64,000 bases of DNA from assembly GCA_045046875.1 (NCBI GenBank), contig JASFYY010000048.1, forward strand, positions 16,298-80,297. Direction: 5' to 3'. Both the position numbers and the translations under genes were made by a program. Under the pieces are notes generated by a model. It saw only the letters and a program-made list of their open reading frames with translations. It made no database searches and was not told the origin of the DNA. Below, one piece after another: positions 24,164 to 62,959 of this stretch (position 1 is its first letter; each line of letters opens with the position of its first letter). This stretch comes from Verrucomicrobiota bacterium (GTDB lineage: Bacteria; Verrucomicrobiota; Verrucomicrobiia; Verrucomicrobiales; DEV007).

Positions 24164-25534
24164 TCATTGCAAGATCGCCTGAATAATCTCCGAACGTTGT
24201 TTATAATGTAACGCTTCTTTTTTCCTGCCGAGGGCATAATACAGCTCCGCCATGTTCATCAGAGTTTGAGCCACTTCCAATGTATTAAAACCCAAAGCTT
24301 TTTCCCTGATCGCTAGTGACCGCTTGTAGAGAGGCTCAGCTTGCTCATATTTCTGCTGTGCTGCATAAACCCAAGCTAAATTATTCAACGACAACCCTAC
24401 TTCAACCGCATCGCCACCTAGCTCTTTCTCTTGAATCGCAAGCACCTTTGCCAAATAAGGTTCAGCTAGTGCATGCTTGCCTTGCATATGGTAAAGCGTC
24501 AGCAATTCACCCATGGCATCAAGCAAATCCGGATGTTTTTTCCCCAAGACTTTTTCCTGAAGTATCACCGAGCGAATAAAAAATACTTCTGCTTTTTGGT
24601 ATTCTCCTTGAGCTTGATATAACTTTCCCACGTTACCCAGATTAAAGCATAACTCCCCAATATCATCTCCAGGCTCTGCGTTAATCGTCAGCATTCGCAT
24701 GCCCATTTTTTCAGCGATAGCCAACTCCCCTTTTTTAAAATAGATTAAAATCAGATAAGAAAAATCATAACTCAAGTCAGCGTGCTCTCTGCCCAACTTC
24801 TCTTCCTTTACCTTCAATGATCTTAGAAACAATGGTCTGGCTTGCTCATATTGCTCCAAAACCGCATGAGCTTCACCTAAGTGACTTGCAATCATAGCTA
24901 CCTCCAGATGACCGCTCCCCAAGGCTTGCTCCTTAATCTTCAATTCCCTCCCATAATAAATAACCGTTTTTTCATATTGATCCCGAAACTTACCTATACA
25001 ACCTAGCGTATGCAGCACTGCCACCAGATCAATATGGTCTACCCCCAACTTCTTTTCTTTAATTTCCAGAGCTCGCTTAAGAAAAGGTTCCGCTTTGATG
25101 ACCAAATCGAGATCATTCACCCCCGCTTCAGAATAACCCTGGCTATAATAAAACCCTCCCAGCGCAGCAAGGCTTTCCGCCACTGCAAGATGATCGGCAG
25201 GCAAAAGCTTTTCATTGAGTACTAAAGCACGTTTATATAGCGCCTCCGCTTCAGCAATCCCCCCTTGGTTTTGTTCAAGCCAAGCCAATAAGCTCATGCA
25301 AACCACCAAGTCAGCTCGACGTTTGCCTGCCATGGCTTCGACCTCTTTCAAAGCCTGGCGAGCAGCGGAGAGCGCAAGTTGTTCCTGCCCCTTATCCTGA
25401 AGCTGTATTACCCGCTGAATGTTATGCTTAACCGAAGCACTAACAACAATCGAATCACTCGCAGCTTGACTTGGAGTCTTCAGCGTCAGCAAAATGACTG
25501 TAAAAAAAATGACCCCTCTGGTGGTGATATTCAT
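24164..25534 (-). CDS. Secreted TPR protein (kinesin light chain-like repeats)
   Basis: Signal peptide; repeats such as LNNLAWVYAAQQKYEQAEPLYKRSLAIREKALG. Confidence 0.88.
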   Translation of the reverse strand: MNITTRGVIFFTVILLTLKTPSQAASDSIVVSASVKHNIQRVIQLQDKGQEQLALSAARQALKEVEAMAGKRRADLVVCMSLLAWLEQNQGGIAEAEALYKRALVLNEKLLPADHLAVAESLAALGGFYYSQGYSEAGVNDLDLVIKAEPFLKRALEIKEKKLGVDHIDLVAVLHTLGCIGKFRDQYEKTVIYYGRELKIKEQALGSGHLEVAMIASHLGEAHAVLEQYEQARPLFLRSLKVKEEKLGREHADLSYDFSYLILIYFKKGELAIAEKMGMRMLTINAEPGDDIGELCFNLGNVGKLYQAQGEYQKAEVFFIRSVILQEKVLGKKHPDLLDAMGELLTLYHMQGKHALAEPYLAKVLAIQEKELGGDAVEVGLSLNNLAWVYAAQQKYEQAEPLYKRSLAIREKALGFNTLEVAQTLMNMAELYYALGRKKEALHYKQRSEIIQAILQ

Positions 25535-25546
25535 TCAGTTCCCTTC

Positions 25547-26770
25547 TTACAGCTGCGCTTTAATATAGTCAGAGCGTTTCCTATATGACAAAGCCTTGTC
25601 ATCCTTGCCCATTGCATGGTACAAAATCGACAGGTTATGTAATATCGGAGCCAAATCCGGGTGGGTGTCCCCTTGTTTTTTCTCCCTGATCACAAGCGCT
25701 TTGACATACAAAGGCTCAGCCTTTTGGTATTGCCCCTGTTTGTGATAAAGCAAAGCCAACTGAAATTGATGGTAAGCCAGCTCAATGTTGTCAGCATCCA
25801 GATGCTTCGTTTTGATTGCCAAAGCGCGAACAGCATAAGGCTCGGCTTCGTTCAGCTTGTCCTGCTGCAAATACAGTGCCGTCAGTCCAGAAAGAGCACC
25901 CCCCAAAGCAGGGTCTTCAAGACCTTGTTTTTTCTCCCGAATCTGCAACACCTTTTTAAACAAAGGCTCAGCTTCGCTCCCTTTATCCATCATTCTATAA
26001 ACATCCGCTAATGCTCCCGCAGCAATAGCCAGTTGCAGGTCGTCCTGCTGCAACTGCTCTTTTTTAATCAACCAAGCCTGTTTAAAATGCGGCACCGCCA
26101 GATCGTAACGCTTATCTCGAAATTGATAGATGGTGCCCAAAAAAATGTGCAACTGCGCCACCTCAAGATGATTTGCTCCCATTTTTTCCTGCTTGATCTT
26201 CAAAGCCTGTTGCAAAGGCGACCTAGCCGATTCCAACCACTTCGCTTCATTTTTTTTATCATCAAATGCCCGCCCACAATAAAACACCCCTAACCGTTCA
26301 AGGCCATCTGCCTGCTCAAGCGGGTTACCACCCTGCACGGTTTTATTGACATTGACCACCCGCTTAAAATACATCTCTGCCTTCTCATTGTTCTCTTGCT
26401 GATAATGCAAGCGAGCAAGCAGGTTCAAACTTGCCGCTATCTCCGTCCGATTTGCTGCCCCTTTGATTTCAGCGGACTCCAACAATACCTCCGCGACAAT
26501 AATAGCCCGTTCCGTTTGCCCTTCACTATACAGCCGGATCACCTTGTTCACCTCCCTCCCAAATGGAGTGATGACCCTTCGCCCCGTATTAACCGAACCA
26601 TTAATCCCCTGCCCCGCATTAACCGGCAATCCAGGTGTGGTAATGGTAAAAGTCTTAAATGCAGAACCAATACCAAAATAACGGCCTTTATCAATAATCT
26701 GCCCCGAAACCGGAGCGGCGACAGACATCAAAAACAAACAAGTTATCAAATAGTTAGGGAGATATTTCAT
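25547..26770 (-). CDS. Secreted TPR protein (paralog of the neighbour)
   Basis: Signal peptide; QGQYQKAEPLYVKALVIREKKQG repeats; similar C-terminus; start set at ATG 26770. Confidence 0.88.
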   Translation of the reverse strand: MKYLPNYLITCLFLMSVAAPVSGQIIDKGRYFGIGSAFKTFTITTPGLPVNAGQGINGSVNTGRRVITPFGREVNKVIRLYSEGQTERAIIVAEVLLESAEIKGAANRTEIAASLNLLARLHYQQENNEKAEMYFKRVVNVNKTVQGGNPLEQADGLERLGVFYCGRAFDDKKNEAKWLESARSPLQQALKIKQEKMGANHLEVAQLHIFLGTIYQFRDKRYDLAVPHFKQAWLIKKEQLQQDDLQLAIAAGALADVYRMMDKGSEAEPLFKKVLQIREKKQGLEDPALGGALSGLTALYLQQDKLNEAEPYAVRALAIKTKHLDADNIELAYHQFQLALLYHKQGQYQKAEPLYVKALVIREKKQGDTHPDLAPILHNLSILYHAMGKDDKALSYRKRSDYIKAQL

Positions 26771-26838
26771 TTTTCTACACACAAAGCCAAGGCTTCACTG
26801 CCATCATCCAAGCGCCTACCAACTAAGTCAACCCAAAA

Positions 26839-26866
26839 TAGGGGTCAGGCAACAATTCTTGACAAA
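26839..26866 (+). mobile_element. Solo copy of the Y1-transposase element left end
   Basis: TAGGGGTCAGGCAACAATTCTTGACAAA is identical (28/28) to 61185-61212. Confidence 0.85.
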
Positions 26867-27018
26867 TGAATAACAAGTGAGTCAAAACGTCTCTTTTTCT
26901 TGATCATTTGCCAAAATTTGCGAGGCTTCTTGAGATTCCGCATTCAGCCACCCATTTTTCCTGATACCTCAGGCCTACCATCCCGATCACCCACTTTCGA
27001 ACTTCCCCAATTTCCACG

Positions 27019-59740: not shown

Positions 59741-61177
59741 ATGCCAACCATCACCGAACTCCGCGCCTCTTATCAATCCGGCGACCTCACTCCGGGCGAC
59801 GCCATTCGCACACTGTCCAAGACCATTGATAACACCGATGGTGAGATCAAAGGTTATATTTCCTACGACACTGACGCCGCACTCGCCGAAGCTCAAAACG
59901 TCGACCTTTCACTCCCGCTCGGAGGAGTGCCGATCGCGATCAAAGATGTCATCAATGTCAAAGGCCAGCCCTGCACTTGTGGCTCAAATTTCCTCGATCA
60001 AAAATACACCGCGCCCTATGACGCTGGAGTGATCAAAAAACTTCGTGCCGCGGGAGCCATCCCTTTTGGACGAGCCAACATGGATGAATTTGCCATGGGT
60101 TCCTCCACCGAGAACTCCGCCATCCAGACCACCCGCAATCCCTGGGACACCTCCCGTATTCCCGGCGGCTCATCCGGCGGTTCCGCCGCTGTTGTCGCGG
60201 CTAACGAAGCCATCGCCGCACTGGGTTCGGATACCGGTGGTTCCATCCGCCAGCCCGCCGCCCTCTGCGGTTGCGTCGGCCTCAAACCCACTTACGGACG
60301 CGTATCGCGTTATGGTCTGGTTGCCTTTGCTTCTTCGCTCGATCAAATCGGCCCAATGACCCAAACCGTCGAAGACGCCGCACTGCTCTTGCAAGCCATC
60401 GCGGGTCATGACGCCCATGACTCCACCTGTGTGAAAGATGCCTTACCCGACTACAGCAGTTTTGTCGGACAAGACATCAAAGGCCTGAAAATCGGCCTAC
60501 CCAAAGAATATTTCGCCGAAGGCCTCGATGCCGAAGTGAAAAACACCGTCGAAGCAGCCATCGCCCAACTCGAGTCACTCGGAGCCGAACCGGTGGAGAT
60601 TTCTCTCCCCCACACCGAGTATGCGGTCGCCACCTATTACATCATCGCCACCGCCGAAGCCTCCACCAATCTCGCCCGCTTCGACGCCGTCCGTTATGGT
60701 CGCCGCGCACCAGACGCCGACAACCTCATCGACCAGTATCGTCGCTCACGCGAACAGGGATTCGGAGAAGAAGTCAAACGTCGCATCATTCTCGGCACCT
60801 ACGTTCTCAGTTCTGGCTATTATGATGCCTACTATTTGCAGGCACAAAAAGTCCGCACCCTGATCCGCAAAGATTTTACCGAAGCTTTTGAAAAAGTAGA
60901 TCTCATCGCCTCCCCCGTCACCCCCACCCCCGCCTTCAAAATCGGCGAAAAATCCAACGACCCCATGTCGATGTACCTCGCCGACATCTACACCATCTCC
61001 GCCAACCTCGCCGGCATCTGCGGCATCTCCGTCCCTTGCGGCTTCACCCAAAGCGACGACAACAAACCACTGCCCGTCGGCCTACAACTCTTAGGCAAAC
61101 CCTTCGCCGAAGGCGACCTGATCAAAGCCGCCCACGCCTACGAAAAAAGCACCGCCTGGCAGAAAACAGCCCTATAA
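59741..61177 (+). CDS. gatA: Asp/Glu-tRNA amidotransferase subunit A
   Basis: PIAIKD, NMDEFAMGSSTE, GGSSGGS, SDTGGSIRQPA, EVKRRIILGTYVLSSGYYDAYY. Confidence 0.96.
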   Translation: MPTITELRASYQSGDLTPGDAIRTLSKTIDNTDGEIKGYISYDTDAALAEAQNVDLSLPLGGVPIAIKDVINVKGQPCTCGSNFLDQKYTAPYDAGVIKKLRAAGAIPFGRANMDEFAMGSSTENSAIQTTRNPWDTSRIPGGSSGGSAAVVAANEAIAALGSDTGGSIRQPAALCGCVGLKPTYGRVSRYGLVAFASSLDQIGPMTQTVEDAALLLQAIAGHDAHDSTCVKDALPDYSSFVGQDIKGLKIGLPKEYFAEGLDAEVKNTVEAAIAQLESLGAEPVEISLPHTEYAVATYYIIATAEASTNLARFDAVRYGRRAPDADNLIDQYRRSREQGFGEEVKRRIILGTYVLSSGYYDAYYLQAQKVRTLIRKDFTEAFEKVDLIASPVTPTPAFKIGEKSNDPMSMYLADIYTISANLAGICGISVPCGFTQSDDNKPLPVGLQLLGKPFAEGDLIKAAHAYEKSTAWQKTAL

Positions 61178-61204
61178 CTCAAATTAGGGGTCAGGCAACA
61201 ATTC

Positions 61205-61233
61205 TTGACAAACCCTCTAGAACTACCTAACCT
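61205..61233 (+). promoter_or_regulatory. Sigma70-like promoter of the transposase (probably leaderless)
   Basis: TTGACA-N17-TAACCT, ATG 6 nt downstream, no Shine-Dalgarno. Confidence 0.65.
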
Positions 61234-61239
61234 CCCATC

Positions 61240-62316
61240 ATGGCGAGGCAGATCAGGGTCGAATTTAAAGGCGCTTTTTATCATGTGATGGCACGGGGCA
61301 ATCACAAAAACCCCATATTTTCCGCCCCTAATGGAGCCGATGAAAAACTTTTCATCAACACCCTCGCTGACACTTGTGAGCGTTCGGGCTTCAGAGTATG
61401 GGCATGGATATTGATGAAAAACCACTATCATCTCATGCTCGAAACTCCACAGGGAAACCTGGTGGAAGGAATGTCCTGGTTACAAAACACCTACACCCGT
61501 CGATTCAACGTTCGACATCGGGAATGGGGACGCCTGTTTGGAGATCGCTACAAAGCTGTGCTCATTCAAAACGATAGAGATCAAAATCCAGGAGGATCCG
61601 CTGGTTATCTTTCCACCGTCATTGATTACGTGCACCTCAACCCGGCAAGAGCAGGCTTAATCAATAGCAAAAAAAACGAAAGCTTGCTCGACTACCCTTG
61701 GAGCAGCGCAGCCAAAGCTTACGCTTTAAGCCCCGGCAAACGCCCCGACTGGATGGCTGTGGACGACGGGCTTGCACTATTTGATCTTCCCGACAAAGTG
61801 TCCGGACGGCGGAAATTTATTTCCCGCTTGGATGACCGCATAGCGAGTGAGGAAGCTGAAAAATGTGGTTTACCTGAAATCGAAGGTCAAAGTTTGCAGA
61901 GCACCCTTCGACGCGGATGGTATTGGGGCAAAGAAGAATTCCGCGAGAGCTTGTTGAATCGACTGGAACAACGAGAACAAAAAACACCTACCAGTCGCAA
62001 TTACACTGGAGGAAGCCAAGCCCTCGACCACTCCATACAGATGGCCGAAAAAATCATCTCCGAAGGGGTTGATTATTTTAAATTGAAATCCACTTCAGAA
62101 GAAACCTTCAAGCAGTTAGCCAAGGGATCGGTAGAACGAATCGCTGTTGCTTGGGCCATATATAAAAAAACATCCGTATCCCAAAAGTGGATTGCTAAAA
62201 GGCTAGGCATAAGTAACGCTGCCAATGTTAGCCAACAGGTGCGCAGATTTAATAAAAGTCCAAACGAACATCCTCTTCCTGAAGTGCAAAAATGGATAAC
62301 ACTGCACAGTTTTTGA
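61240..62316 (+). CDS. Y1 HUH (REP-associated-like) tyrosine transposase with C-terminal HTH
   Basis: YHVMARGN, NHYHL (HUH), LFGDRYKA, YVHLNPARAG, YPWSS, SQKWIAKRLG. Confidence 0.92.
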   Translation: MARQIRVEFKGAFYHVMARGNHKNPIFSAPNGADEKLFINTLADTCERSGFRVWAWILMKNHYHLMLETPQGNLVEGMSWLQNTYTRRFNVRHREWGRLFGDRYKAVLIQNDRDQNPGGSAGYLSTVIDYVHLNPARAGLINSKKNESLLDYPWSSAAKAYALSPGKRPDWMAVDDGLALFDLPDKVSGRRKFISRLDDRIASEEAEKCGLPEIEGQSLQSTLRRGWYWGKEEFRESLLNRLEQREQKTPTSRNYTGGSQALDHSIQMAEKIISEGVDYFKLKSTSEETFKQLAKGSVERIAVAWAIYKKTSVSQKWIAKRLGISNAANVSQQVRRFNKSPNEHPLPEVQKWITLHSF

Positions 62317-62344
62317 TTTTTGTTGCCTGACCCCTAATTTGATT

Positions 62345-62959
62345 ATGCGCCACGACTTTTTATTTGATATCGGTAATGTTATTTTGAAGTTTGATTTCAG
62401 TTTGGCGGTGCGCCGCATTGAGGATCGTTGCTCAAAAGTGCACGCAGACGAAATTTTACCTACTATCTCAGATCTTACAGAGGGTTTAGAATCGGGGAGA
62501 ATCAGCACCGGCGCTTACATTGCGGAGGTCAGTGAGCGCTTGGGATTCTCGGGATCCGTTGAGGACTTTATTCGGGCTTTTGAAAACATTTTCACACCTA
62601 ATTTGGAAATGATTGCCCTGATTGATCAACTCAAACAAAAGGGGCACCGCTTATATTTGCTTTCAAATACCAACGGCATTCATGTCCCCTTTTTCACTCG
62701 CGAATACCCAGTGTTCGATCTTTTCTCCGGCGCAACCTACTCTCATGAAATAGGCTGCATGAAACCCAATGCCGGAATTTATCAAAGCGCCATCCAGCAA
62801 TTTGAGCTCAAAGCTGAGAGCACCATTTACATTGATGACTTGGAAGCAAACGTTGTCGCAGGCAGCGATTTGGGTTTACTGGGCATTCACTACGATCCCG
62901 AACAACACCAACGCCTGATCAATGACTTGCGCCAGCACGGTATCGCAGTCAGCGACTGA
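62345..62959 (+). CDS. HAD-family phosphatase (YihX-like)
   Basis: FDIGNV, LLSNTN, KP, YIDD...NV; start set at ATG 62345. Confidence 0.88.
   Translation: MRHDFLFDIGNVILKFDFSLAVRRIEDRCSKVHADEILPTISDLTEGLESGRISTGAYIAEVSERLGFSGSVEDFIRAFENIFTPNLEMIALIDQLKQKGHRLYLLSNTNGIHVPFFTREYPVFDLFSGATYSHEIGCMKPNAGIYQSAIQQFELKAESTIYIDDLEANVVAGSDLGLLGIHYDPEQHQRLINDLRQHGIAVSD

Follow-up and report, generated by a model that had tools for sequence, protein, structure and literature searches.

A TIRtron at a gatA-HAD junction: probable insertion as a unit and a predicted nick inside its own repeat

How might an HUH/Y1 enzyme handle a DNA segment whose ends are inverted repeats with no hairpin to read? The question is posed by 1164 bp of the window (the whole 64,000-nucleotide stretch of Verrucomicrobiota DNA analysed here), in which the gene for such an enzyme is packed between two inverted arms, with gatA on one side and a gene for a HAD-family hydrolase on the other. 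An earlier note on this DNA had suggested a possibly mobile HUH element whose ends resemble TIRs and lack the GTAG of REPs. That reading is supported as regards the ends, and there are signs of mobility. The reading favoured here, on balance the probable one, is that this TIRtron entered the junction whole, as 1164 bp and with no target duplication, and that the enzyme nicks the repeat of its own element 7 nt inward from the GGGG edge.

Layout, protein and kinship

The two 23-nt arms are 100% complementary, as the note had stated (Table 1); the runner-up perfect inverted pair in an inverted-repeat search of the 58-64 kb region is 12 nt long. The fit between the neighbours is tight: the gatA stop (61177) is followed by a single C and the left arm, and the right arm by TT and the HAD start codon. 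A perfect arm of the full 23 nt is particular to the window copy (the counterpart in the congener designated G005 has 20 nt only), and the conserved family end begins at GGGG (61187 on the left, 62334 on the right), not at the arm tip: GGGGTCAG stands at 61187, and its inverted copy ends at 62334. The gene is surrounded by inverted repeats instead of REPs, and neither end has a stable hairpin. End hairpins were considered and rejected: the weak GTCAGG/CTTGAC stem that had been proposed for the left end folds at -3.5 kcal/mol (MFE; z -1.26) with a different predicted pairing, and folding of the element ends predicts nothing at the right. The left-type repeat includes the -35 box (TTGACA) of the likely transposase promoter.

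Table 1. Features of the element and its surroundings, in window coordinates
Feature	Position	Strand	Remarks
gatA (amidase)	59741..61177	+	left flank, outside the element
Left terminal inverted repeat	61179..61201	+	8 outer bases (61179-61186) and GGGGTCA head (61187-61193)
Left-type repeat	inner extent ~61212	+	boundary set by genome-wide copies
Predicted nick, left, at C/T	61193..61194	-	7 nt inward of GGGG edge; predicted from where duplications end at other copies
Likely transposase promoter	61205..61233	+	TTGACA 61205-61210, 17 nt, TAACCT 61228-61233; function inferred from sequence
TIRYT gene, 358 aa	61240..62316	+	H62/H64, Y130, SS 155-156; core ~1-224; tail ~267-358
Right terminal inverted repeat	62320..62342	-	right-type repeat extends inward to ~62308 and overlaps the stop codon
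Predicted nick, right, at C/T	between 62327 and 62328	+	inferred
HAD-family hydrolase	62345..62959	+	right flank; adjoins gatA in three congeners without the element
Gene-less left-type repeat copy	26833..26868	+	GGGG head at 26841; between divergent genes

The 358-aa reading frame is intact, as claimed, with no internal stop, and N61, H62, Y63, H64, Y130, H132, N134, P135, W154 and S156 are invariant across 29 aligned homologs. Pfam Y1_Tnp matches residues 13-112 (E 1.9e-8), and the NCBIfam model REP_Tyr_transpos (NF047646) scores 52.5, below its cut-off of 80. The motifs of TnpA-Y1 subclass 2.1, as given in Table 1 of the available part of PMC6006769, are present: NHYH at 61-64, YVHLNP at 130-135 and SS at 155-156. 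The top structural match of the predicted structure (mean pLDDT 84.7) is E. coli TnpA-REP (4er8; Z 16.3, rmsd 2.2, 157 aligned), and residues 267-358 of the model match DnaA domain IV (1j1v; Z 10.8, rmsd 2.7, 87 aligned). The C-terminal HTH of the earlier note is discernible in the model and invisible to Pfam, which gives no match for it in the 358-aa protein itself: Bac_DnaA_C is found in 3 of the 29 homologs, the window protein not among them, and a profile comparison with DnaA 1l8q returns E 0.009. As modelled, the protein is a TnpA-REP-like core with a DnaA domain IV-like tail.

Such units have been named before. Di Nocera, De Gregorio and Rocco (2013; PMC3733652, here and below in the portion of its text available) coined "TIRYT" for a RAYT-like gene with TIRs on either side and "TIRtron" for the whole unit, gave GGGGWSAS as the repeat consensus, and noted that some hosts have moderately abundant dispersed TIR families, with members single, dimeric or grouped. 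The present element has all three hallmarks: a RAYT-like gene between TIRs and not REPs, GGGGWSAS, and a dispersed TIR family. The novelty implied in the earlier note, with the proviso that the RAYT literature might already define the family, accordingly lapses; the present unit joins a family that already has a name. In the accessible text of Quentin et al. (2018; PMC6006769), 20 of 26 TIRYTs are assigned to TnpA-Y1 subclass 2.1, which occurs in ~15% of species. Subclass 2.1 is RAYT Group 1, the most IS-like of the true RAYT groups, with 6.3% duplicates, as reported in the available text of Bertels (2017; PMC5581495). Membership of the element in TIRtron/TIRYT, that is, subclass 2.1, is close to certain, and within it the assignment is likely 2.1.2. 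It shares with the subclass NH[YF]H, Y[IV]HLNP and the SS motif, a C-terminal DnaA_C/HTH, absence of GTAG REPs and low copy number, and differs in that its protein has 358 aa as compared with a median of 238.

Two other affiliations were tried and rejected: the classical RAYT/REPtron (groups 2 and 3), because GT[AG]G-footed palindromic REPs are absent at the ends and the NF047646 score falls below cut-off; and IS200/IS605, because of the Y-x3-NP motif, the 358-aa length, the missing hairpins and the single copy. Likenesses to both exist. With TnpA-REP and its REPtrons the element has in common the core fold, one gene with dispersed cognate repeats and a predicted cut at C/T, but it has neither GTAG foot nor stable hairpin, an added DnaA-IV-like domain, and tens of repeats in its genome rather than hundreds. 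With IS200/IS605 (IS608, ISDra2) it shares the HUH/Y1 fold, the probable absence of target duplication and, as predicted here, the preference of that family for the lagging-strand template (PMC6006769, available part); unlike them it has Y-x3-NP in place of Y-x3-Q and inverted ends in place of subterminal hairpins, exists in a single copy and is without TnpB.

Mobility and the gatA-HAD junction

Homologs at E <= 1e-30 are found in 48 of 134 genomes of the bacterial family. Ends were compared in a set of 38 loci (the best 30 of the E <= 1e-30 matches plus 8 from a back-translation scan of genome contigs), from which exclusion of 3 window/G005 versions and 7 truncated loci leaves 28 full-length homologs with flanks. 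GGG(G)TCA-type heads are present at both ends in 26 of these 28 (by a permissive finder whose right-hand pick at L081 is off), the left head mostly 51-59 nt before the start codon. Outside both heads the homologs have only 0-6 bases in common (median 1), and the window has 8; the conserved part of the end accordingly begins at GGGG.

Does the unit move? Quentin et al. (2018; PMC6006769), in the text available, report no mobility evidence for class 2 TnpA-Y1. In three pairs of loci (L228/L231, L068/L069, L060/L063), DNA identity of 84-93% between genomes is limited to the ~1.13-1.15 kb inside the repeats and the flanks are unrelated; in L062/L224 identity is likewise confined between the repeats, L224 lacking the right one. 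Among 43 loci, only the window's own genome (G000) and G005 have flank proteins at high identity. Identity confined between repeats is the trace expected of a moving unit, and judged by these alignments the unit looks mobile.

One can think of the gene instead as domesticated and vertically kept, its repeats serving as operators for the DnaA-like tail and the gene-less copies making up a small regulon. The gene is single-copy (no second complete copy was found in the genome, the next match covering 92 aa at 43%), and the 29 synonymous as compared with 12 non-synonymous codon differences from the gene of G005 signify, by codon count, purifying selection. Against this stand the unrelated flanks of the homolog units and the absence of the gene at this site in three congeners (G001, G002 and G004), in which gatA adjoins HAD. 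The dispersed repeats, considered below, also bear on this proposal, which is improbable.

Other Y1-related sequences were noted in passing. In G000, a broken second TIRYT-like gene, the 43% match just mentioned, is followed by a worn repeat-like stretch (C99:6261-6550). Also scattered there are ~13 similar copies of a second Y1 family (~330-360 aa) with a long HUH-Tyr insert, resembling subclass 2.3 (C1:239, C88:4874, C141:6, and on C109, C43, C85, C50, C2, C29, C55, C8, C63 and C18). Elsewhere, L228:1435-3416 is a TIRtron with its first 830 bp tandemly duplicated, the left repeat of the second copy being joined directly mid-gene; in L212 a repeat head directly follows a truncated Y1 gene; and MITE-like inward-facing repeat pairs, 85-150 bp apart, occur at L117:1401-1548, L205:301-385 and L218:301-447, with none in G000.

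The junction without the element is most informative in G001. Measured from the gatA WQK codons, the HAD ATG is reached after 24 nt in G001 and after 1188 in the window, which is 24 + 1164; the junction spacer reads CCT in the one and C+TT in the other. This exact match of length may be due to chance, since it comes from a single congener with 78% and 67% identity on the two sides of the junction, and the corresponding distances are 46 nt in G002 and 92 nt in G004. Of the two insertion routes that the earlier note had offered, entry of the whole 1164 bp fits the G001 junction exactly, and on this alignment it is likely that the whole segment was inserted at the gatA-HAD junction with no target duplication. 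A joint that skips the element, or a circle junction, was sought in the contigs of 4 metagenome runs (contigs show presence, not absence) and none was found; 10 listed metagenome runs contain part of the stretch, and no RNA runs containing it are listed. The missing joint and the single gene copy speak against recent activity, and the element also occupies the gatA-HAD junction of G005 (96%).

The other route, in the manner of a classical IS, has a GGGG..CCCC core entering a palindromic target and duplicating TA. The window and G005 do have TA beside each of the two heads, as do 4 of 18 homologs (those with exact GGGGTCA at both ends, 20 less the window and G005). Yet 12 of these 18 have no adjacent direct repeat and 2 have a single base; TA precedes only 9 of 24 heads in the genome and 13 of 103 metagenome heads among the matches listed; the 14-bp palindrome occurs nowhere in the genome and in no congener junction; and the outer bases of the window's ends recur before gene-less copies at unrelated sites. 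TA being self-complementary, an inverted repeat that ends in TA mimics a TA duplication. The core-and-palindrome route is very improbable, and a TA duplication is in all likelihood absent.

Gene-less repeats and their duplicated tips

Twenty-seven copies of the repeat exist in G000, 25 of them away from the gene, and 24 exact 15-mer cores in G005; the other four congeners have 0-5 copies each by a looser pattern. An exact 19-mer pattern found 1 match in 200 other genomes of the phylum, a scan that is uninformative because the repeat varies with the enzyme. The gene-less copies are single ends of ~32 nt, the left type ending TTGACAAA and the right type TCAAAAAC. With genes called crudely from ORFs, 13 of 27 heads have a gene boundary no more than 30 nt away on the outer side.

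Are these copies operators of a domesticated regulator? Most of the gene-less sites are common to G000 and G005, and left-type copies carry TTGACA, as operators of a retained regulon might. Yet the copies face neighbouring genes in every orientation, a regular -10 box after gene-less TTGACA copies was not seen by eye (a clear one follows only the gene's own copy), and the family numbers at most 5 copies in any of the other four congeners. Two features of individual copies may be recorded here: in the window (24164-26782, minus strand), two adjacent genes for TPR-like proteins (456 and 411 aa) start just outside the repeat at 26841; and at C125:17960 (L028) a right-type repeat directly follows a tRNA-like gene, the head of the G000 copy being mutated.

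At 9 of 21 shared sites with outer flank, G000 and G005 differ, by eye, in at least 6 nt just outside the head. What distinguishes the two genomes there is tandem duplications, small indels or blocks of 200-850 nt; inner-side differences also occur at some shared sites. The copy at C1:12695 is absent in G005, the edges of the empty site being blurred because the DNA beyond is only ~80% alike, and no clean empty site was found for C113:42228 (the G005 contig begins just past the repeat; G001, G003 and G004 are too diverged).

(Some particulars of individual sites: C52:555 and C54:81195 (L089, L087) have ~200 extra bases outside the head in G000 relative to L044 and L043 in G005, and both extras hold a similar repeat, absent there in G005. 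Conversely, L024 of G005 has ~850 extra bases outside the head relative to C129:9345 of G000. The G000 repeat at C58:51310 has a short inverted copy of the head immediately beyond it, which G005 (L029) lacks. At C38:57546-57735, 95 bp are duplicated in tandem, an entire left-type repeat with its inner flank included. In G000, a run of C with which GGGG could pair is present 5-10 nt outside many of the heads.)

The tandem duplications were counted. The census took in G000 and at least 122 metagenome loci, many of the metagenome copies representing one related subfamily; collapsing similar flanks reduced 149 heads to 117. A perfect tandem duplication, of period 8 or more, crosses the outer edge of 22 of these 117 non-redundant heads and the inner edge of none (among the matches listed), compared with 4 of 476 chance GGGGTCA sites (Fisher p 4e-13). 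The duplicated unit is made up of 4-12 flank bases and part of the head. Among the same matches, the ends of 14 of the 22 are compatible with position +7, directly after GGGGTCA, and 7 fall exactly there; the other 8 misfit, with ends at 1-4, 9, 15 and 20. The outer boundary has no common dinucleotide. At gene-flanking repeat ends of homologs, tip arrays (period 6 or more) are present at 21 of 54; where homologs have other repeats, the inner boundary varies more widely, over 6-14 and 20-21, with one at 32.

Could these duplications come about with no enzyme at all, by replication slippage in the G-run or as artefacts of assembly? Slippage could account for a few short duplications (period 8-10) that end within the G-run, and contigs often break at these repeats. 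The scarcity of duplications at chance GGGGTCA sites speaks against it, as do the 13 of 22 without microhomology (among the matches listed) and the reappearance of a given duplication, in variant forms, in independent assemblies (G005, X1-X3); same-site duplications differ between G000 and G005 at C37, C32 and C129. Slippage or artefact is barely credible as the general explanation. From the pattern in the sequences, it is likely that short tip duplications at scattered repeats mark the enzyme's cut site. The +7 joint read on the opposite strand is C/T, which is not universal, some homologs having A or T at position 8. In the available text of PMC3733652 there is no empty site, no test for target duplication and no mention of tip duplications, a strand bias or a cut site, and in the open literature on TIRYT/TIRtron/HUH/RAYT, to the extent that its text is available, no published account of tip duplications, the +7 joint or the strand bias was found; the literature searched, similarly delimited, yielded no biochemistry of subclass 2.1.

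Which strand, and what it would mean

GGGGTCA lies on the C-rich strand in 18 of 23 independent gene-less copies, as compared with 172 of 476 chance sites (p 8e-5). (The 23 are a hand count, with two tandem clusters merged and the gene's own ends dropped; gene orientation is not a covariate.) With the G-rich strand taken as the lagging-strand template, it is mostly the TGACCCC strand that is exposed at the replication fork. The chances that the nick falls on this strand, 7 nt inside the GGGG edge at C/T, are, from the sequence pattern, about even.

A scheme built on that placement would run as follows: 1) The DnaA-IV-like tail would bind the repeat and thereby cover the gene's own -35 box. 2) The HUH/Y130 core would cut the TGACCCC strand at C/T while it is single-stranded, likely as lagging-strand template, and remain linked to the outward 5' end. 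3) The freed 3'-OH would usually be rejoined, and sometimes first be extended by 12-20 nt; rejoining after extension would double the head together with a few flank bases, leaving one fixed and one variable edge. 4) REP-like cuts on both sides of a repeat may spread the ~32-nt gene-less copies. 5) Rarer events would move the whole unit, with a retention of both heads that lies outside the nick-extend-rejoin scheme. There is precedent for the chemistry: the TnpA-REP proteins of E. coli and S. maltophilia cut at C/T, and the 3'-OH so released is able to serve as a primer for synthesis or to attack the tyrosine linkage (PMC8266576, in its available part). In the E. coli case, according to the same text, the attacking 3' base has to be C, a requirement that these joints do not display.

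What if the other strand is cut? The fixed 3'-OH would then follow GGGGTCA, the tyrosine-linked 5' end would lie at a variable 5-12 nt outside, joining between sister copies would generate the duplications, and one-ended transfer would carry outer bases along. The same +7 joint is predicted from either cut, and sequence data accordingly cannot separate the two strands. A cut on the GGGGTCA strand better explains the outer bases that travel with the repeat: CAAATTA precedes 6 of 25 heads (2 of the 6 are the gene's own, and the gene-less ones are at unrelated sites), TCAAATTA precedes 4 and AAAT 15. Its 3' end in TCA would also resemble IS608-type right ends. The lack of a common dinucleotide at the outer boundary weighs against it, as does the location of GGGGTCA mostly on the C-rich strand, likely the leading-strand template. 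A cut on the GGGGTCA strand is, all told, unlikely; a cut on the TGACCCC strand is the placement retained here.

As an element it is unremarkable, one more member of a family that received its name in 2013. What the locus adds is a count of duplicated tips with controls, a strand bias and an empty junction of exactly the right length. The enzyme is intact, its cognate repeat is present 27 times, one junction may be the empty site, and the cut is predicted to base and strand, all of which makes the locus a compact case for testing. A wider proposal may be ventured tentatively, at somewhat less than even odds: that TIRtrons are actively mobile and represent a third HUH strategy, the DnaA-like domain recognizing an inverted repeat free of hairpins and the nick being placed 7 nt inside it on the lagging-strand template. 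Aborted rounds of nicking, extension and rejoining would leave tip arrays and adjacent insertions and deletions, complete events would carry the gene between distant hosts with no target duplication, and the dispersed copies would be points of enzyme-driven remodelling at gene boundaries. If true, this would show how an HUH enzyme handles hairpin-free ends, and would account for the small rearrangements seen where genes adjoin in many environmental bacteria.
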